This document shows, piece after piece, positions 1 through 5,954 of a DNA stretch of 5,954 nucleotides (position 1 is its first letter; every line of letters begins with the position of its first letter). The DNA comes from a virus (lineage: Duplodnaviria > Heunggongvirae > Uroviricota > Caudoviricetes). The notes below the pieces were generated by a model. The model saw nothing but the letters and a program-made list of their open reading frames with translations, was not told the origin of the DNA and ran no database searches. The DNA lies in the IMG/VR virus record IMGVR_UViG_2684622669_000017; one strand, given 5' to 3'. The translations under genes were made by a program, and so were the position numbers.

Positions 1-108
1 CGGCAGGGGAACCGCCATACTCGCCGTTGCCATTTGTGTCCCCTTGCTGGTGGTCTTTAACTGCGGGTCAGTCGCCAGCCGCCCGTAAGCTGCTATCTGT
101 GCTGTCAT
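1..108 (-). CDS. Partial CDS (5' end only, continues past the left window edge): probable single-stranded-DNA-binding (SSB-like, OB-fold) protein
   Basis: Minus-strand ATG at 108..106 overlaps the TGA stop of the upstream ORF (ATGA). Translation MTAQIAAYGRLATDPQLKTTSKGTQMATASMAVPLP stays open to position 1. The G-R-L-x-x-D-P-x-L...G...A-x-x-S-x-A-V pattern resembles the N-terminus of bacterial/phage SSB. Absent from the ORF track because it is truncated. Confidence 0.4.
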   Translation of the reverse strand, partial: MTAQIAAYGRLATDPQLKTTSKGTQMATASMAVPLP

Positions 109-356
109 GTTGTCTGCTCTCCGGTTTTAACGTTGATGGTTGTCACCTGTTCCGCTTCGGCAATCTCCCGTTCTGTCAGCGTGGCAAAGTTTGCCGCCGC
201 CGTGGTCATGAATGCGCTTATCAGTTCGGGATGTGCTTTCGCGTATCCTTCCCCGGCATGGCGGTCTATCGTTCTGATTGCCACCTTTAAGGCGTGCTCT
301 GTCATGTCTAATGCGCGATATTTTGGTGCTGTCTTATCTCTGGTTTTTCTGGTCAT
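105..356 (-). CDS. Hypothetical protein (83 aa), function unknown; translationally coupled to the downstream SSB-like gene
   Basis: ORF track; ATG at 356..354 preceded on the minus strand by AGAGGTGAGGA (SD-like, itself part of an iteron); protein-like composition; stop TGA overlaps the next start. Alternative in-frame ATG at 305..303 (MTEHALK...) has no SD. Confidence 0.5.
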   Translation of the reverse strand: MTRKTRDKTAPKYRALDMTEHALKVAIRTIDRHAGEGYAKAHPELISAFMTTAAANFATLTEREIAEAEQVTTINVKTGEQTT

Positions 357-560
357 TCCTCACCTCTACTCACTTTTATTCCTCACTTTTTGTTATTCCC
401 GTCCTGCTCCTCACCTGTTTTTTTTGCTTCTGTAATGCGTTGTTTTGCAATGTATTTTTTATTCCTCACTTTTTGACCTATATACAGGTGAGAAAGTGAG
501 GAATAGCGCTGATTTTTTGTTAAATTACCCGCTATCCTCACTTTTGCTCCTCACTTTTTA
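355..560. repeat. Iteron array with AT-rich core: putative origin of replication of the element
   Basis: Direct copies of (A)TTCCTCAC(T)TTTT(G) at 355-363, 369-377 (partial CTCACTTTT), 378-392, 409-414 (followed by T8 at 418-425), 461-475, 533-546 and 547-559. One inverted copy AAAGTGAGGAAT at 493-504. CACCTG (412-417) and CAGGTG (485-490) form an inverted pair flanking an AT-rich stretch 418-484. Lies immediately 3' of the helicase gene; the last iteron overlaps its stop codon. Confidence 0.7.
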
Positions 561-1973
561 CAGTGGGCGCACATAATCACCGTCAATAGCGATTACGCCG
601 TCGCTTTCCAGCTTGTACAGCCAGCGCCGGAAGTTTTTCATTTCATACCCCAGCTTTTTCATATCGTCGCGGAGAAGGGCGATAGTGCACGCCTCCCCGT
701 GTGCTGTTCGCGTTCTGATGCACTGCCATAGCGCGGCATGATTCTCCGTCTTGTTCCCGGCCTCCTCGATGCGCTCCAGTTCAACAGGTGGGCGCGGCTT
801 ATCCACAACCACCAGCGACGTGATTAACTCCCCGTCAGTGTCGGTAAAAAGCTCCACCACGCGTAAATCGTATGCAGCCTCTTTCAGTTCCTCCGCGTCC
901 TTCATTTTGGTGCAGGAGATAACCAGGGCTTCACTGTCTGCACCTTCACGGCGAATACGGTATTCAGCGTCCAGAGATGCACGAAATGCACTGGAACCAC
1001 GCGCCCCCTTTGTTTCATCCTTGCCGGAATGGTGAACCACCAGCACCGTGGCCCCTGTGCGTCGTTTCAGTTCGTCACATCCACGGATAAACGCCCCCAT
1101 ATCCCGCGCGTCATTTTCATCATTACCGCCAAAACACCGCGCCAGCGTATCCAGAATAATCATGCGTACCGGTTTACCCGTTTCCCTTTCAACCTGGCGG
1201 GAAGCGATGACCATTTCATCAACATCAAACTGGGCTGCCGGAAAAATCGGGCGGTTTACCAGGTACAGATTTTCCACCCGTTTATCATTAACGATTTCCC
1301 ATGCCTTGATACGGCGGGGGACACCAATGCCACCTTCACCGACGACATACATCACCGAACCATGCGCCACCCTGCGGCCTCCCCAGTGACGGCCAGTGGC
1401 AACATGACACGCCCAGGAACACGCGAGGAACGATTTATAGGAACCGCTCGCGCCGTATGTGCTGCACAATGAATTAGCCGGAATCACGCCCTTAACGACA
1501 TAATCAAGCTGTGTGTCGTACCCTGCAGATCCAATGCTCATTGGTAGCGTGGTTTTTCGCTGGCTGTATTGCTCGTCAGTAAGTATTTCCCCGCGCTCTG
1601 CCTGTTCGCGGATCCGTTGCAGGTAGTCGTGCCAGTTCTCCAGCTTCTGGCTGTGCATTCCATCAGGGTAATAATTCGCATCCCGTACACCTGCCGCCGC
1701 CAGCTTTTGCCCGATAGCATTAATATTTGACGGCTTGATGTGGCCTGCCTTGTACAGCCGGACACAATAGCGACCATCGTCGATGATTTTCAGGTCTGCC
1801 AGTTCGTCAAGCTGGCTGTCTCCAAGCCATACGGGTGGCACGTTGTCGCCAGCAAGTCGCCCGTCCTGTTCCTGCCATTGTTTCGCGTGCGCCCAGGCAT
1901 CACTACCCGCAAAAATAATGACTTCGGTCATTTTGTCGTGTGGCTGTTTTTTTAAGTTCGGTGCCAGTTTCAT
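558..1973 (-). CDS. RepA-like replicative helicase / replication initiator, AAA_25 (RecA-fold) ATPase family, with C-terminal putative winged-helix DNA-binding region
   Basis: 471-aa ORF, ATG at 1973..1971 with AGGGT SD-like 5 nt upstream, ATGA overlap with the upstream ORF stop. Motifs: P-loop-like VIPANSLCSTYGASGSYKSFLA (Walker A variant with Y in place of the second Gly, verified on the DNA as TAT), Walker B MIILDTL, and VLVVHHSGKD characteristic of RepA/AAA_25 helicases. Iterons lie immediately downstream. Confidence 0.8.
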   Translation of the reverse strand: MKLAPNLKKQPHDKMTEVIIFAGSDAWAHAKQWQEQDGRLAGDNVPPVWLGDSQLDELADLKIIDDGRYCVRLYKAGHIKPSNINAIGQKLAAAGVRDANYYPDGMHSQKLENWHDYLQRIREQAERGEILTDEQYSQRKTTLPMSIGSAGYDTQLDYVVKGVIPANSLCSTYGASGSYKSFLACSWACHVATGRHWGGRRVAHGSVMYVVGEGGIGVPRRIKAWEIVNDKRVENLYLVNRPIFPAAQFDVDEMVIASRQVERETGKPVRMIILDTLARCFGGNDENDARDMGAFIRGCDELKRRTGATVLVVHHSGKDETKGARGSSAFRASLDAEYRIRREGADSEALVISCTKMKDAEELKEAAYDLRVVELFTDTDGELITSLVVVDKPRPPVELERIEEAGNKTENHAALWQCIRTRTAHGEACTIALLRDDMKKLGYEMKNFRRWLYKLESDGVIAIDGDYVRPL

Positions 1974-2269
1974 TTTTTACCCCTGAATGCGTTAATCATG
2001 TTTTTCATTTTCTGAATATTTGCCCGTGCCTTTGCGTTGCTGGTGGGCTGTTTGCGTGGTGTGGCCTGTATCAGTGAAAAATCACGCCGGAACTGATAAA
2101 CAGGCATCACGCAGTCATAACCGTACCCATCACGGCGGTAAGTAACGCACCGTCCCGCCACGCTTTTAATCGTTACCGTGCCGCCGTAGTTATCCCGGAA
2201 AATATCGCCGGGGCGGATTTCAGGCCGAGCGGGGCCGCTGGCAGTAAAGCCAGAATTTTTCTTTTTCAT
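1970..2269 (-). CDS. Hypothetical protein (99 aa), function unknown; translationally coupled to the helicase gene
   Basis: ORF track; ATG at 2269..2267 preceded by GAGGAA 7 nt upstream; TGA stop overlaps the helicase ATG (ATGA). No recognisable motif. Confidence 0.6.
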   Translation of the reverse strand: MKKKNSGFTASGPARPEIRPGDIFRDNYGGTVTIKSVAGRCVTYRRDGYGYDCVMPVYQFRRDFSLIQATPRKQPTSNAKARANIQKMKNMINAFRGKK

Positions 2270-2339
2270 GGTTTTTATTCCTCTGCGCGGGTCTTGTCGT
2301 GTATTTCCATAACCGCGTTTAATTCATCAATAACCGGGG

Positions 2340-2483
2340 TTAACAGAGTGCTGAAAGCAGAAAGTAAATACCCCCCCGCTCGGTGTTATTTTCGGTTAAT
2401 TCATCCAGTACCGTTTTTAATTCAAGCGCCCTGATTAATGCATTCTCAGAATGAATAAGAACATCGAAAGGGATTTTATCCAT
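2340..2483 (-). CDS. Small hypothetical ORF (47 aa as sequenced); would be 69 aa ending at 2275 if the G7 tract were G8
   Basis: ATG at 2483..2481 with GGAGGA 8 nt upstream, overlapping the stop of the upstream ORF (ATGGATAA). Translation MDKIPFDVLIHSENALIRALELKTVLDELTENNTERGGIYFLLSALC. A +1 change in the homopolymer at 2371-2377 extends the reading frame to a TAA at 2275-2277, directly in front of the RBS of the next gene. Below the ORF-track length cutoff. Confidence 0.4.
   Translation of the reverse strand: MDKIPFDVLIHSENALIRALELKTVLDELTENNTERGGIYFLLSALC
2371..2377. repeat. C7 (plus) / G7 (mRNA) homopolymer inside a coding region; candidate frameshift site
   Basis: cccccccg at 2371-2378; read directly from the sequence. 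Confidence 0.9.
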
Positions 2484-2709
2484 GGCTTACATCCTCCGGG
2501 AATTTTCTTCTGTAACGCGCCTCTGCCACATATTCAGCATAGTCCGACGCAATAACGAGAATATCGCTGCCTGTTCCTGAATGCTCAGTGGTTCCAATTA
2601 AAAAACATGCGGCCTTTATCAGGTCATTAACAACCAGCAACGCATCACCCGCATCATCCGATACGCCATCAAATTCCTGTTTCAGGGCATTAAAACGATC
2701 ATCACGCAT
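2476..2709 (-). CDS. Hypothetical protein (77 aa); possibly the C-terminal part of a gene split by the G9 tract
   Basis: ORF track; ATG at 2709..2707 lies 2 nt after the G9 run (the run could act as an SD but the spacing is short); overlaps the 3' end of the upstream ORF by 28 nt in another frame. Confidence 0.5.
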   Translation of the reverse strand: MRDDRFNALKQEFDGVSDDAGDALLVVNDLIKAACFLIGTTEHSGTGSDILVIASDYAEYVAEARYRRKFPEDVSHG

Positions 2710-2942
2710 AACCCCCCCCCATTTTCACAATCAGCAATCAGGATGGCTTTGGCCTCATTCAGTGCCATATCAGCGGTAAGCTGTGCGTAGGCCAGCGAAT
2801 GGGGGATTATTGCCCCTGTATACTCCGGCTCTCTGGTAATGTGTTTTTCTGCGGTTGCTGCCGTGCATGAAATATCAATCAGCGCGCGCATTAGCGTTCT
2901 GATAGCTTCGTCGGCTGCGTCCGGACGGGTGTTATTGCACAT
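2682..2942 (-). CDS. Hypothetical protein (86 aa); possibly the N-terminal part of a gene split by the G9 tract
   Basis: ORF track; ATG at 2942..2940 with GGAGG 6 nt upstream; start overlaps the stop of the Icd-like gene (ATGTGCAATAA). The final 9 codons after the G9 tract (LCVMIVLMP) look like out-of-frame read-through. Confidence 0.55.
   Translation of the reverse strand: MCNNTRPDAADEAIRTLMRALIDISCTAATAEKHITREPEYTGAIIPHSLAYAQLTADMALNEAKAILIADCENGGGLCVMIVLMP
2712..2720. repeat. C9 (plus) / G9 (mRNA) homopolymer at the junction of two overlapping ORFs; candidate frameshift, slippage or sequencing-error site
   Basis: accccccccc at 2711-2720; read directly from the sequence. One extra G would fuse ORF 2682..2942 to ORF 2476..2709 (...DCENGGG-VMRDDRFNALK...), giving about 151 aa. 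Confidence 0.9.
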
Positions 2943-3138
2943 GGTGCACCTCCTGACGAATACGGGCGGCGAATACCATCACGCAGCCAGCCGGTGATTG
3001 TTGACGGGCTTCCTGTTCGCTGGTGGCCACGATGTGAATCACGCGCGGTTGTGCCGTGCTCAGGGCGATAAAACGCCAGATGTATTTATTCAGGTTGTGC
3101 GAGTCCCGCCCTTGCGGGTGTGTGGTATGATTTCTCAT
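2932..3138 (-). CDS. Small protein (68 aa) resembling Icd-like (host cell-division inhibitor-like) proteins of P4-type elements; first gene of the leftward operon
   Basis: ATG at 3138..3136 with GAGGT 4 nt upstream. Translation MRNHTTHPQGRDSHNLNKYIWRFIALSTAQPRVIHIVATSEQEARQQSPAGCVMVFAARIRQEVHHVQ. The W-R-F-x-A...ATSEQEAR...FAAR pattern matches, from memory, the Icd-like small-protein family. It is the 3' end of a 356-aa ORF-track entry whose upstream part I consider non-coding. Confidence 0.55.
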   Translation of the reverse strand: MRNHTTHPQGRDSHNLNKYIWRFIALSTAQPRVIHIVATSEQEARQQSPAGCVMVFAARIRQEVHHVQ

Positions 3139-3175
3139 AGCTACCTCGATACTTCTGCTATCGTTGGTGGTTAGA

Positions 3176-3209
3176 AGCCCTGCGAGTGGTAACGACACTT
3201 GCGGGGCTT
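3176..3209 (-). promoter_or_regulatory. 13-bp imperfect inverted repeat (AGCCCTGCGAGTG-N8-CACTTGCGGGGCT) in the predicted 5' leader of the leftward operon
   Basis: Read from sequence; 11/13 Watson-Crick matches, and both mismatches become G.U pairs in RNA; lies between the predicted leftward promoter and the Icd-like RBS. Confidence 0.45.
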
Positions 3210-3230
3210 TGCATTTATGCGCCTTGATAA

Positions 3231-3271
3231 TTTTAAGGTGTGGCCCACTATATGTTTTAGGTGTGGTCCAC
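3231..3271. promoter_or_regulatory. Tandem operator-like repeats TTTTA(A)GGTGTGG(C/T)CCAC, each containing a GTGG-N-CCAC palindrome
   Basis: Repeat 1 at 3231-3248 (palindrome GTGGCCCAC 3240-3248), repeat 2 at 3255-3271 (GTGGTCCAC 3263-3271), period about 24 bp. They overlap the -10 and spacer of the predicted leftward promoter and lie upstream of the RHH gene. Confidence 0.55.
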
Positions 3272-3276
3272 GTCAA
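3247..3276 (-). promoter_or_regulatory. Predicted sigma70 promoter for the leftward Icd-like/helicase operon (TTGACG-N18-TATAGT)
   Basis: Minus-strand -35 TTGACG (3276..3271) and -10 TATAGT (3252..3247) with an 18-nt spacer; predicted TSS near 3240; both operator repeats overlap it. Confidence 0.5.
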
Positions 3277-3337
3277 GAGTTTTATTTGTGCTTTTTCTGT
3301 GTATACTGTCCCCCACCAATCCACCAGAGGAATAGAA

Positions 3338-3517
3338 ATGGCAACGGGTACAACAAACGCAAAATCACAAGCTCTAAAGGCTCGTGTACCACACGAAATA
3401 GTAAACGCCATGGAATCAGTGAAAGAATCAGGCGAAAGCACATCACAATTCATCATTACGTCAATGCAAGGCGAGATCAAACGCCGCCAGCGGCGCAAGG
3501 CCAAAGAGCAGGAGTAA
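3338..3517 (+). CDS. Ribbon-helix-helix (Arc/MetJ/CopG-like) DNA-binding protein, 59 aa; candidate repressor of the divergent promoter
   Basis: ATG at 3338 with GAGG 7 nt upstream. Translation MATGTTNAKSQALKARVPHEIVNAMESVKESGESTSQFIITSMQGEIKRRQRRKAKEQE. Beta-strand (LKARVP) - helix A (HEIVNAMESVKES) - G-x-S turn - helix B matches the RHH signature (compare Arc NLRWPREVLDLVRKVAEENGRSVNSEIYQRVME). Palindromic repeats lie upstream. Confidence 0.65.
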   Translation: MATGTTNAKSQALKARVPHEIVNAMESVKESGESTSQFIITSMQGEIKRRQRRKAKEQE

Positions 3518-3574
3518 CCATCACCAGCGCCGTGGTGTGAGTAACTACGGCGCATTGCTATGCAGGACAACACA

Positions 3575-3748
3575 ATGACCGATAAAGAATTGACCAAAAC
3601 ATTATCACCGGCACGGAAAAGACGGCGCAGAAAGATAGAACATGAATCAGAAAGATTCGCACCTTGTTCGTTTGCTCTTGAGAAATTCCTTAAAGAGCAC
3701 AGGAAAAAGCTCTCGTTGCAAACCTTGGAACGAACCAAATCTGACTGA
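3575..3748 (+). CDS. Small basic protein (57 aa; 62 aa if translation starts at the upstream ATG 3560), function unknown
   Basis: ATG at 3575 preceded by AGGA (3564-3567) with 7-nt spacing; the ORF-track start at 3560 lacks an SD. Translation MTDKELTKTLSPARKRRRRKIEHESERFAPCSFALEKFLKEHRKKLSLQTLERTKSD; same frame as the RHH gene but separated by two stop codons. Confidence 0.45.
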   Translation: MTDKELTKTLSPARKRRRRKIEHESERFAPCSFALEKFLKEHRKKLSLQTLERTKSD

Positions 3749-3827
3749 TCACATTGCCCACCAGCCGCAAATGTGGCATTGTTGGTGATGCTCATACGTT
3801 GGGGATAACGTGTAGCTTGTGTCGAGG

Positions 3828-3855
3828 GGCCACCGTAGCGGTTGGCCTTTGTTTT
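3828..3855 (+). terminator. Probable intrinsic terminator of the RHH/small-protein operon
   Basis: Hairpin GGCCACCG-tag-CGGTTGGCC (8 bp with one bulge) followed by TTTGTTTT (3848-3855). Confidence 0.45.
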
Positions 3856-3872
3856 GCCTGTTATCCGGCAAT

Positions 3873-3902
3873 TGTGGCGCTTCGCCACACGGTTGATATA
3901 AT
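3873..3902 (+). promoter_or_regulatory. Extended -10 promoter (TGaTATAAT at 3894-3902) overlapped by a perfect 7-bp-arm palindrome TGTGGCG-CTT-CGCCACA (3873-3889)
   Basis: Perfect TATAAT at 3897-3902 preceded by TG at 3894-3895; -35 is weak (TTGTGG 3872-3877, 19-nt spacer); the palindrome occupies the -35/spacer region like an operator. Confidence 0.4.
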
Positions 3903-3908
3903 TCCCCT

Positions 3909-3979
3909 GCACTGATCCATTTTTTTCGCAGCAGGTTAATTGTTCGCAAGGGCGCTCCGGTAACGGGGCGCTTTTTGTT
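3909..3979 (+). ncRNA. Candidate small RNA (about 70 nt) between its own promoter and an intrinsic terminator
   Basis: Predicted TSS about 7 nt after the TATAAT; transcript ends at the 3952-3979 terminator; no ORF with an RBS in between; contains a possible 5' hairpin CCTGC...GCAGG. Entirely inferential. Confidence 0.3.
3952..3979 (+). terminator. Intrinsic terminator (plus strand): GC-rich 8-bp stem with GUAA tetraloop and U-tract
   Basis: GCGCTCCG-gtaa-CGGGGCGC (one U.G pair) followed by TTTTTGTT (3972-3979). On the minus strand the hairpin is not followed by a T-run, so it is unidirectional. Confidence 0.55.
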
Positions 3980-4006
3980 ATGTTCATCGCGTTACGCCTC
4001 ACACCA

Positions 4007-4213
4007 TTACGCAGCCGTTCCGCGCGCTTCTTCCTCGCGCTCTTTCAGCCAGGCCAGCACTTCATCTTCATACCAGCCAACACGACGCAGACCGATTTTG
4101 AATCCTTTCGGGAATTTTCCGGCGTTGATCATGTCCTGTAGCGAACTGTCTGCCTTGATGCGCAGAATATTTTTTACTTCCTGACGGGTAAGTATTTTTC
4201 TGATTGTTTCCAC
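4007..4213 (-). CDS. alpA: AlpA-family phage regulatory protein (transcriptional activator / excisionase-like, winged HTH)
   Basis: 68-aa ORF starting at GTG 4213..4211 with GAGGT 8 nt upstream. Translation ...ILTRQEVKNILRIKADSSLQDMINAGKFPKGFKIGLRRVGWYEDEVLAWLKER aligns with E. coli AlpA motifs (FPK, VGW, E-x-E-[IV]-x-x-W-L). Confidence 0.8.
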   Translation of the reverse strand: METIRKILTRQEVKNILRIKADSSLQDMINAGKFPKGFKIGLRRVGWYEDEVLAWLKEREEEARGTAA

Positions 4214-4280
4214 TATGTTTTACCTCGTTAATCCGGCGTATTCCGGTGATAAATACGGTAAAACAGGGCAGGGCGGGAAA

Positions 4281-4318
4281 AACAGTACCCACCGTTTTAA
4301 AACGGTACCCACTGTTTT
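4281..4318. promoter_or_regulatory. Composite repeat upstream of alpA: two direct GTACCCAC copies 20 bp apart around a perfect palindrome CCGTTTTAAAACGG, with inverted outer flanks AAAAACAG / CTGTTTTT
   Basis: GTACCCAC at 4285-4292 and 4305-4312; palindrome at 4292-4305; lies between the int-operon terminator and the alpA RBS. Confidence 0.4.
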
Positions 4319-4348
4319 TTATCTCATTGATTACGCTTTTCTTTCTGC

Positions 4349-4377
4349 AAAAAAATAGCGACCGCAAAGGGCCGCTA
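4349..4377 (-). terminator. Intrinsic terminator downstream of the int / 76-aa ORF transcription unit
   Basis: Minus-strand hairpin TAGCGGCC-ctttgc-GGTCGCTA (one mismatch) followed by TTTTTTT (plus-strand A7 at 4349-4355), 7 nt after the ORF stop. Confidence 0.55.
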
Positions 4378-4383
4378 TTGTGA

Positions 4384-4614
4384 TTACCGTTTCCACTTCT
4401 TAGGTCGCCCACCGCATTTAAGGCTGGTGGGCCTCAGCACCTTGTCGATGCTTTCAGCCAGATTTTTCGATGCACCACGCGAGCGCAAAAAACTGACTAC
4501 CTCGTGTTTTGTGGGGGCTGTTGATTTGTCTTCCGGATCGTATGTTGACCAGAATTCACGATTTGCCATTAACGCCAGTTGCAGCCCTTCGCCGTAGGCG
4601 GTGGTATTTTGCAT
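4384..4614 (-). CDS. Hypothetical small protein (76 aa; 61 aa if translation starts at the internal ATG 4569), basic C-terminus, function unknown
   Basis: ORF track; ATG at 4614..4612 lacks an SD. An out-of-frame 19-codon upstream ORF (ATG 4628..4626, GGAG 3 nt upstream) ends in TAATG, overlapping the internal ATG at 4569. Protein-like composition; followed by an intrinsic terminator. Confidence 0.5.
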   Translation of the reverse strand: MQNTTAYGEGLQLALMANREFWSTYDPEDKSTAPTKHEVVSFLRSRGASKNLAESIDKVLRPTSLKCGGRPKKWKR

Positions 4615-4659
4615 AATAGAATTTTCATATACTCCGGCCTTGTCGTTAAATTTGTGGCA

Positions 4660-4665
4660 ATTATA
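4660..4665 (-). promoter_or_regulatory. Possible -10 element (perfect TATAAT on the minus strand) between the integrase stop and the 76-aa ORF
   Basis: Plus-strand attata at 4660-4665; -35 is weak (ATGCAA); position suggests an internal promoter for the small downstream ORF. Confidence 0.25.
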
Positions 4666-4712
4666 CGATGGTTTGGCATGGTTTGCATCGCTTTTACTGG
4701 CTTTTTGTACAG

Positions 4713-5954
4713 TTACACGGCACGGATACCCCTTTTACCACTGGCTATGGTCACTCCGGTAGCTGCGGCCTCTACAAATTCCCCCCACCAGCGCATAAGC
4801 ACCACGCGCTTTTCCAGGTAGTTACTTCGGTTATATGCTCGCCTTACCTCGTTCGTGTCCACGTGTGCGAGTGCGGCCTCGATTACGTCCGGCTCGAATC
4901 CTTCCTCGTTCGCTGCTGTACTGAATATGGCGCGTAATCCGTGAGACACCAGCACACCAGCGTAACCCATCCGGCGTAATGCAGCGTTAGCGGTCTGGCT
5001 GCTCATTGGTAGCATTGGATTTTTAAGGCTGGGAAAAACATGTTCCCTGTGTGCGCTGATTGGCTTCATGGTTTCCAGTACAGCCATAGCCTGACCGCAA
5101 AGGGGGATCACATGGTCACGGCGCATCTTCATGCGTCCGGCTGGAATCGTCCAGGTTTCGGCATCGAGATCTATTTCTTCCCAGCGTGCGGCGGCTGCTT
5201 CGGCTGGGCGTGCTACGGTCAACAGTTGCCACTCGATCAGCAATCTGGTTTGCCGTTCTATGCTGGCGACCGATAAATCGTGCATTAGCTGCGGTAGCTG
5301 TTCCGGTCGGATGGTTGGCATGTGCTTTTTGGTGGGTGAGGGAAATGCCTTGCGGACGTTAGCAGCGGTGTTGATGTCAATCAGCCCACTGTTGGCGGCA
5401 AAATCCATCACTTCATTGATGCGCTGCAAAACGCGTTTCAGAGTTTCCAGGTTGCCGCGTGCTTTAATGGGTGTGAGTATCTCAACAAAGCGGCGAGCGG
5501 TGAGGGTATCTATTGGCGTTTTTCCGATGTACGGGAATACGTATTTTTCCATGGATCGCCAGATATCCTTAATCGTGTTGTAAGCGAGATTCTGGCCTTT
5601 TTTCATCTCGTACCAGTCAGAGGCAACTTTTTCGAACGTGTTGCCCTTTTTCCGACTCTCTGCTTCACGTTTCCGGCGTTCGTGGTCCTGTGGGTCAACT
5701 CCCTTCGCTATGAGTGACCTGTATTCATTCCGTCGTTCTCTGGCATCGGACAGGGAAACATCATTCAGCGATCCGAGGCTGATGATAGTCCGTTTTTTAT
5801 CTGCCGGGCGGTAGTACGTAAAACGCCAGATTTTTGATCCGGAGGGTTTCACCAGAAGAAATAATCCTCCGCCATCCTGCAGGGTGTATTCCTTTTCCCC
5901 TGGTCGTGCGTTTTTGATCTCCGTAATAGTTAGTGGGGTGGTTTTTCGTGCCAT
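4713..5954 (-). CDS. int: Site-specific tyrosine recombinase/integrase, P4 family (N-terminal arm-binding DUF4102-type domain plus catalytic domain)
   Basis: 413-aa ORF; ATG is the last three nucleotides of the window (5954..5952); TAA at 4715..4713. N-terminus MARKTTPLTITEIKNARPGEKEYTLQDGGGLFLLVKPSGSKIWRFTYY is typical of P4-type integrases (compare E. coli IntA). Catalytic motifs are present: R in TVARPAE, HGLRAIF (H-x-x-R), and tyrosine in RRAYNRSNY. Confidence 0.92.
   Translation of the reverse strand: MARKTTPLTITEIKNARPGEKEYTLQDGGGLFLLVKPSGSKIWRFTYYRPADKKRTIISLGSLNDVSLSDARERRNEYRSLIAKGVDPQDHERRKREAESRKKGNTFEKVASDWYEMKKGQNLAYNTIKDIWRSMEKYVFPYIGKTPIDTLTARRFVEILTPIKARGNLETLKRVLQRINEVMDFAANSGLIDINTAANVRKAFPSPTKKHMPTIRPEQLPQLMHDLSVASIERQTRLLIEWQLLTVARPAEAAAARWEEIDLDAETWTIPAGRMKMRRDHVIPLCGQAMAVLETMKPISAHREHVFPSLKNPMLPMSSQTANAALRRMGYAGVLVSHGLRAIFSTAANEEGFEPDVIEAALAHVDTNEVRRAYNRSNYLEKRVVLMRWWGEFVEAAATGVTIASGKRGIRAV

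Follow-up and report, generated by a model that had tools for sequence, protein, structure and literature searches.

A highly probable Gram-negative phage-inducible chromosomal island, cut by a contig end, at tRNA-Pro of an Escherichia albertii-like chromosome

Identity of the island and its integration site

The stretch of DNA analysed here (5,954 nt in full, called the window throughout; IMG/VR virus record IMGVR_UViG_2684622669_000017) is very probably part of an EcCICFT073-like phage-inducible chromosomal island (PICI) of Gram-negative bacteria, namely its integrase-proximal half. The island is inserted at the tRNA-Pro (proL)/yejM site of a chromosome that resembles Escherichia albertii, and its sequence stops where the contig ends. 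EcCICFT073 is the prototype of the Gram-negative PICIs and has been characterised experimentally (Fillol-Salom et al., 2018 ISME J, PMC6092414; 2019 Mol Cell, PMC6739421). A preliminary description of the window had proposed an uncharacterised small satellite-like island, continuing past the left edge and combining an integrase, AlpA, an Icd-like protein, an AAA_25 helicase with an iteron origin and a gene for a single-stranded DNA-binding protein (SSB), with no capsid-redirecting genes in this part. These components were all found, the SSB gene as its first 36 codons, and scans of the window against Pfam, PHROG and NCBIfam detected no capsid, packaging, tail or lysis gene; a PICI is a phage satellite, and the element does run on past the left edge, where the source contig ends. 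It is the word uncharacterised that has to be given up. The gene order is that of EcCICFT073, the site is that of three named PICIs (EcCI11368.1, EcCI11128 and EcCIATCC25922), and identity amounts to 88% for the replicase (with EcCI11368.1) and 82% for the integrase (with EcCIATCC25922). The element is an ordinary member of a well-described family.

Several features of the arrangement carry this assignment. The integrase is the outermost gene and adjoins tRNA-Pro; alpA, whose product is 76% identical to the AlpA of EcCIATCC25922, lies just downstream of it; and the yejM/tRNA-Pro attachment site, which is specific to PICIs, is occupied by the island. Immediately after the 3′ end of the replicase gene comes the non-coding origin, its iterons grouped in two sets on either side of an AT-rich region; this position and layout are those of published Gram-negative PICI origins (Fig. 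2a of PMC6092414). Within it the sequence YYCTCACYT occurs eight times, all copies falling in positions 357–556; 0.19 would be expected and none of 200 shuffles reached eight. Two further genes have counterparts in the same positions in EcCICFT073: the 83-aa protein encoded next to the origin is 75% identical to its equivalent (85 aa), and the DUF4222 protein 70% identical. All sizeable genes are on the minus strand, except for one small plus-strand cassette (Table 1).

The window is the reverse complement of the first 5,954 bases of contig BBWB01000012.1 (assembly GCA_001515025.1), and likewise of positions 6020–11973 of locus L002. The end of the contig coincides with window position 1, so that the element was cut by the assembly and not merely by the window. 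An exact-protein look-up found the replicase on this one public contig and, because the contig ends at position 1, the left half of the island in the source strain is not recoverable.

A tRNA search detected none inside the 5,954 nt. The source contig has a tRNA-Pro(GGG) at a distance of 209 bp past the integrase ATG, on the right-hand side of int as had been anticipated, and yejM, yejL and yejK come after it. Seven PICIs have been assigned to the yejM-luxR/aidA site (Table S1 of Fillol-Salom et al., 2018, PMC6092414), and in the K-12 chromosome the tRNA-Pro/yejM site is empty. At the far end of the related island in TUM1881, a degenerate copy of the tRNA-Pro 3′ end is joined directly to the K-12 downstream sequence, which places the integration in the 3′ end of tRNA-Pro. 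The att core published for the yejM site (TTTGTAGTTATACG...) aligns with GTAGCTA repeats that the source contig carries in the interval from int to the tRNA. GTAGCTA/GTAGTTA repeats occur on both sides (L002 5812–6019; L001 13320–13430 and 24236–24444; L007 300–500) and, because they lie inside the element, they look like arm-type sites of the integrase. The published core is a set of internal repeats, the real junction being the tRNA-Pro 3′ end, and the arm-type reading agrees with later work that reassigned reference PICIs to tRNA genes.

The chromosomal flank (L002 1–5900) is about 91% identical to E. coli, and a 25-mer carrying flank-specific variants, looked up in 185,579 species genomes, matched that of the Escherichia albertii representative and no other; on the strength of this sequence comparison the source chromosome is E. 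albertii-like. The island, at 93–97% identity to E. coli copies (96% for the window), is closer to E. coli than its flank, and we therefore infer recent exchange between E. coli and E. albertii. Beside yejK, the source contig carries NapC/NirT cytochrome and FAD-oxidoreductase genes, an arrangement shared by only one of 5,426 E. coli genomes.

These comparisons also bear on whether the window could come from a decayed prophage remnant without a satellite life cycle. A small phage-related island beside a tRNA is what such a remnant would look like, and some relatives do carry pseudogenes: in ETEC1732 the otherwise near-identical replicase gene (L009 8559–9974) is annotated with an internal stop, so that some copies of the island are probably unable to replicate. 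In the window, however, the open reading frames (ORFs) are all intact, and islands with this compact gene arrangement are found in many genomes and at several att sites. The window is also closer to E. coli copies than the flank is, pointing to recent horizontal transfer, and it has no near DNA match among 50,697 phage records. A decayed prophage is thus very unlikely, and we return to the PICI assignment.

Full-length relatives and the zone beyond the left edge

Some part of the window is matched in 1,942 of 5,426 complete E. coli genomes, and at least 80% of it in 66. In TUM1881, E2 and ETEC1732 the island fills about 11 kb, from tRNA-Pro to yejO, and beyond the point at which the window stops these three carry the SSB gene, a small ORF, a lambda gpE-like major capsid gene, a gpD-like head-decoration gene, a small ORF or helix-turn-helix gene and a packaging gene. 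The product of this last gene is either a small terminase of the Nu1 type (PF07471, E = 1e-67) or a protein of 146 aa with 84% identity to RppA. The islands of the relatives measure 8.5–11.4 kb, against the roughly 8–15 kb that marks a Gram-negative PICI, and in those examined there were no tail, lysis, portal or large-terminase genes and no annotated sid, psu, delta or epsilon. Where the late zone of a proL-site relative was examined, it always held a capsid homologue together with a small terminase or Rpp. Type A PICIs have been defined by an integrase, an AlpA-type regulator, a primase-replicase, a capsid-morphogenesis gene and a small terminase, and 97% of them are in E. coli (SatelliteFinder, PMC10085698); the full-length relatives fit this five-component definition exactly. 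A flank bearing a standard PICI gene set, which according to the preliminary description would make the element an ordinary member of a described family, was found in every full-length close relative examined.

A second module occurs at the same site, on contigs encoding exactly the same 83-aa protein, and consists of a 638-aa ClpP-protease/capsid fusion and a DUF1441 small terminase. Two hijack modules alternate on one backbone at this site. The window itself is mosaic: in an alignment of positions 1–360 with L010–L017, L001, L008 and L009, the origin is like that of the lambda E/D-type islands, and the last 160 nt are identical to the protease-capsid islands. Naming the missing module from the close relatives was considered and rejected as weak, since the origin and the last 160 nt point to different modules and the mosaic structure undermines any such assignment. 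EcCICFT073, EcCIATCC25922 and the E2 island contain the lambda cosN sequence GGGCGGCGACCT, which is absent from the late zones of TUM1881 and L010 even at two mismatches; the cos type of the helper is therefore not uniform.

The late zone of such islands is variable and the left half of this copy lies past the contig end, as would suit a new satellite variant whose missing half holds an undescribed hijack or defence module. The proL-site late zones examined were nevertheless all of known types, namely lambda E/D-like, protease-capsid fusion, or the order of small terminase plus capsid gene seen in EcCI11368.1 and EcCI11128, and the last 160 nt of the window are those of the protease-capsid type. 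PADLOC found no defence match among the ten window proteins. We consider such a variant highly improbable.

The capsid genes of the relatives, one module being the protease/capsid fusion with its small terminase, could alternatively be those of a capsid-forming PICI (cf-PICI), which makes its own capsids and steals only tails. Yet neither the relatives examined nor the window contain a portal, large terminase, HNH or head-tail connector gene, and the islands, from tRNA-Pro to yejO, are only 8.5–11 kb in size. A cf-PICI is accordingly given next to no probability.

Equally little weight attaches to a P4-like satellite, hijacking a P2-type helper by means of Sid, Psu and Delta. The window does have a P4-family-type integrase with Arm-DNA-bind_3, an AlpA/Vis-like regulator and an Icd-like gene, and the long ORF nested with the last of these recalls the eta/kil arrangement of P4. 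The canonical P4 layout comprises the alpha primase, sid, psu and delta, and the preliminary description was right that the window departs from it: no window protein matched Sid, Psu, Delta or Epsilon, and the replicase lacks a primase domain and does not resemble alpha. A tblastn search with the Icd-like protein gave no P4 match in the phage collection, and the full-length relatives combine lambda-type E/D-like capsid genes with Rpp or a small terminase of the Nu1 type, two of them having lambda cosN as well. The Icd-like search returned one record, LR881103.1 (H32; positions 9397–9546), which is neither P4 nor P1; at 16.5 kb, this entry (Escherichia phage vB_KppS-Ant, "induced prophage") may be a satellite deposited as a phage. 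An Rfam cmscan of the whole window at E ≤ 0.1 found no C4/isrK (P4/P1-type RNA immunity), the only hits being spurious microRNA and scaRNA families, chance matches on the origin palindrome.

A number of observations weigh against assigning the window to the EcCICFT073 kind of PICI. Among relatives whose 83-aa gene is identical, two or more different modules occur, and the window stops before the hijack/cargo half. The integrase (25% identity) and AlpA have only distant counterparts in EcCICFT073, and the ATPase module of the replicase is AAA_25 where EcCICFT073 has D5_N/DUF5906/Pox_D5, both variants occurring in named PICIs. The published scheme, in which Gram-negative PICIs are transcribed in one direction, omits an opposite-strand cassette of the sort found here. 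Finally, the induction, helper and transfer of this island are predictions by homology: the activator role of AlpA and helper dependence have been published for EcCICFT073 and EcCIMP1, and helper-dependent induction, packaging and high-frequency transfer have been shown for these two only.

Replication module and regulatory zone

The features of the window are collected in Table 1.

Table 1. Features of the 5,954-nt window, with strand and supporting matches
Feature	Position	Strand	Evidence or remark
SSB gene, first 36 codons	1–108	-	Cut by contig end; translation MTAQIAAYGRLATDPQLKTTSKGTQMATASMAVPLP
83-aa conserved PICI protein, between origin and SSB gene	105–356	-	phrog_1231, E = 1.2e-50
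Replication origin	357–557	.	Two iteron sets (core TCCTCACTT) flanking an AT-rich stretch; one inverted pair, 460–505
Replicase, RepA-type (AAA_25) helicase, 471 aa	558–1973	-	PF13481, E = 1.6e-44; phrog_2850, E = 1e-247
DUF4222 protein, 99 aa	1970–2269	-	PF13973, E = 2e-24
Three small overlapping ORFs (47, 77 and 86 aa)	2340–2942	-	77-aa and 86-aa ORFs match phrog_24341/2512 and phrog_5146
Icd-like gene, 69 aa	2932–3141	-	NF033153, 71 bits; phrog_6196, E = 7e-45
Long stop-free ORF, 351 aa from ATG at 3987	2932–3987	-	Shares its stop with the Icd-like gene; crosses the YlcI/YnfO cassette on the antisense strand
Two-hairpin leader before the short Icd-like start	3145–3209	-	Minimum free energy -24.6 kcal/mol, z = -3.15
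Promoter-like site TTGACG-18-TATAGT, reading leftwards	3240–3276	-	Overlapped by two palindromic GTGGNCCAC boxes, 3240–3248 and 3263–3271
YlcI/YnfO-family protein, 59 aa	3338–3517	+	NF041551, 68 bits; phrog_949
62-aa ORF downstream of YlcI/YnfO	3560–3748	+	phrog_21027, E = 1e-13; CFT073 has an annotated gene in the corresponding position
Terminator-like hairpin ending the opposite-strand cassette	3948–3975	+	12-pair stem, then T run; kept across islands
AlpA-family regulator, 68 aa	4007–4213	-	PF05930, E = 4.5e-8
Region upstream of alpA	4215–4383	-	Tandem and inverted AAAACNGT...ACNGTTTT repeats (4278–4319); CACCGGAATACRCCGG motif
Terminator-like hairpin closing the gene upstream of alpA	4354–4379	-	
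76-aa ORF between int and alpA	4384–4614	-	68% identical to EcCIATCC25922 gene in the same position
Tyrosine integrase, 413 aa, tRNA-Pro (proL)/yejM-specific	4713–5954	-	Arm-DNA-bind_3, Phage_int_M, Phage_integrase; NCBIfam PRK09692, 558 bits

Domain searches of the replicase found AAA_25 only and no primase domain, and a sequence search of the PDB gave no match. Its residues 1–134 (window 1572–1973) align at 63% identity with the N-terminal part of Pri-Rep, the D5-type replicase of EcCICFT073, and the remainder is unrelated; from this alignment, one common N-terminal domain appears to be joined to two different helicase modules, AAA_25 and D5-type. The iterons were compared over window 357–557, L010–L017 9797–10000 and L019 7300–7500. 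They all read GTGAGGA in the window, L013 and L008, and all GTGGGGA in L009–L012, L015–L017 and EcCI11368.1, while identity in the neighbouring 83-aa gene is about 99% over both sets of islands. That every copy changes together next to a nearly identical gene supports a function for the iterons, and the A to G change looks like a concerted switch of origin specificity. On the other side of the 83-aa gene, the DNA of the SSB stretch is identical to the start of the 140-aa PF00436 SSB genes in L010–L017. Equivalents of the three small ORFs are annotated in relatives.

The repeats and the CACCGGAATACRCCGG motif upstream of alpA are kept in EcCIATCC25922, EcCI11368.1 and EcCI11128, and are candidate sites for AlpA autoactivation or for a helper signal. 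The 76-aa ORF at the far side of this region had no match in Pfam, PHROG, NCBIfam or PADLOC.

The preliminary description had also included a ribbon-helix-helix (RHH) switch. The corresponding gene is there, as the opposite-strand YlcI/YnfO-family gene; the fold is the less secure part of the claim. A single-sequence AlphaFold model of the protein was all-helical (pLDDT, the per-residue model confidence, of 87), and its best matches in the PDB were nearly all RHH proteins (Arc, CopG, VapB, AtaR and AmrZ), at E-values of 1.3 or above that are not significant. A sequence search of the PDB gave no match and a literature search for the function of the family found nothing relevant. The protein is probably an RHH DNA-binding protein, a prediction to which the model lends weak support. 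The promoter-like site with its two GTGGNCCAC boxes, next to the divergent YlcI/YnfO gene, lies in a region matching EcCICFT073 at about 95%, judged by eye from the alignment, and the boxes may act as an operator. Between this site and the Icd-like gene, the leader is kept in nine of ten islands, with one compensatory pair, and its second hairpin pairs with the GAGG ribosome-binding site; it matched no Rfam family.

The long ORF that ends together with the Icd-like gene lies in a frame open for 356 codons (2932–4002), with a start, GAGG-N9-ATG, placed 20 nt after the alpA stop; the terminator-like hairpin of the opposite-strand cassette sits just inside this start. Its equivalent in EcCICFT073 is c1487 ("icd-like", 428 aa). 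In 12 of 16 islands the frame from alpA to the Icd stop continues without an internal stop for 355–586 codons (the window and L005, L008–L012, L015, L016 and L018–L020), and the other five frames of the zone contain 6–45 stops each. The frame is broken in L001 and L013, two islands of one cassette type. The middle of the zone is of at least four unrelated cassette types, and is antisense to YlcI/YnfO or SWIM-domain genes. No Pfam domain was found in the long ORF of the window, and a recognisable extra domain appeared in only one of the long ORFs scanned (Phage_ASH, in EcCI11368.1). Between the window and M7424, identities number 37/59 in the YlcI frame and 36/61 in the long-ORF frame, so that sense and antisense conservation does not discriminate. 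The zone of EcCICFT073 has been annotated in two incompatible ways, originally as c1487 and in RefSeq as two opposite-strand genes plus a short Icd-like gene; Fillol-Salom et al. used the original CFT073 annotation with the single c1487 gene.

Because the frame is kept open while its middle is unrelated between islands and runs antisense to family-supported genes, selection for translation is suggested. A tentative model, which we think more doubtful than not, is that translation of the stretch and not its product is under selection. By analogy with P4 eta, ribosomes on the long ORF would shield transcripts from the alpA promoter from Rho-dependent termination, the Icd-like gene would be the equivalent of kil, and YlcI/YnfO would serve, through the GTGGNCCAC boxes, as the repressor of the resting state. 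In P4, translation of the long nested gene from an upstream activated promoter prevents termination; Mageeney et al. (2023, PMC10111431) give a summary of this mechanism and have already carried the eta analogy over, in outline, to what they call the Bro zone in PICIs. Relative to that work, only the stop-free-frame statistics and the repressor proposal would be new, and the eta/kil likeness is to be taken as a lead and not a result. If the model were true, YlcI/YnfO would be the resting-state repressor that Gram-negative PICIs were said to lack.

By analogy with EcCICFT073, the life cycle would begin with a lambdoid helper phage switching on alpA, after which the integrase would excise the island and the RepA-type helicase, aided by the SSB of the island, would fire the TCCTCACTT iteron origin directly 3′ of its own gene. 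As it has no primase of its own, the island presumably depends on host priming. Genes past the left edge, which in relatives are a capsid homologue and a small terminase or Rpp, would then redirect the packaging machinery of the helper. At rest, YlcI/YnfO, with the two palindromic boxes over the leftward promoter, would probably keep the operon from the Icd-like gene to the replicase silent.

As a finding, one more copy in an E. albertii-like genome matters little in a family counted in thousands. Its value is minor: the island documents exchange between Escherichia species, it illustrates how different hijack modules are joined to one backbone for integration and replication, and it draws attention to the two incompatible annotations of the regulatory zone in the prototype PICI.

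Comparison with named systems

Of the systems compared, P4 and the window have integrases that belong to one broad type. Both also have an AlpA/Vis-like regulator and, after alpA, a short toxic-peptide-like gene with which a long ORF is nested, the basis of the eta/kil analogy. P4 differs in that the window has no match to sid, psu, delta, epsilon or the alpha primase, nor to C4/isrK (the CI RNA) in Rfam, and in that the hijack genes of the window's relatives are lambda-type and not P2-type. The cf-PICIs (Alqurainy et al., 2023) resemble it in having an integrase, AlpA and a replicase, and the relatives of the window in their capsid and small-terminase genes; those relatives are smaller, however, at about 9–11 kb, and without portal, large terminase, HNH and connector genes.

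Three PICIs listed in Table S1 of PMC6092414 are nearer. EcCIATCC25922 occupies the same site and keeps the motifs upstream of alpA and the att-adjacent repeats, but has a D5-type primase replicase and a 101-aa variant of YlcI/YnfO. EcCI11368.1 and EcCI11128, from E. coli O26 and O111, share the tRNA-Pro/yejM site, DUF4222, the origin layout and a "helicase RepA family protein", the 88% identical homologue of the window replicase. They differ from the window in their iterons (GTGGGGA in place of GTGAGGA), in having another regulatory cassette, with an Ash-domain long ORF in EcCI11368.1, and in a late zone where the small terminase precedes a different capsid gene.

With EcCICFT073, once located in the CFT073 chromosome, the differences lie in individual components. 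The integrases are 25% identical and the site is ycfD-phoQ instead of tRNA-Pro/yejM; its AlpA is a distant allele giving a short, weak match to that of the window; its replicase is a D5-type primase-helicase as against RepA/AAA_25; and its iterons are TGTCTACC as against TCCTCACTT. The order of genes is nonetheless the same throughout, from int and alpA through the opposite-strand YlcI/YnfO gene, the Icd-like gene (c1487), the small ORFs, DUF4222 and the replicase to the iteron origin, the 83/85-aa gene and the SSB gene, and its capsid homologue is 64% identical to that of a close relative of the window.

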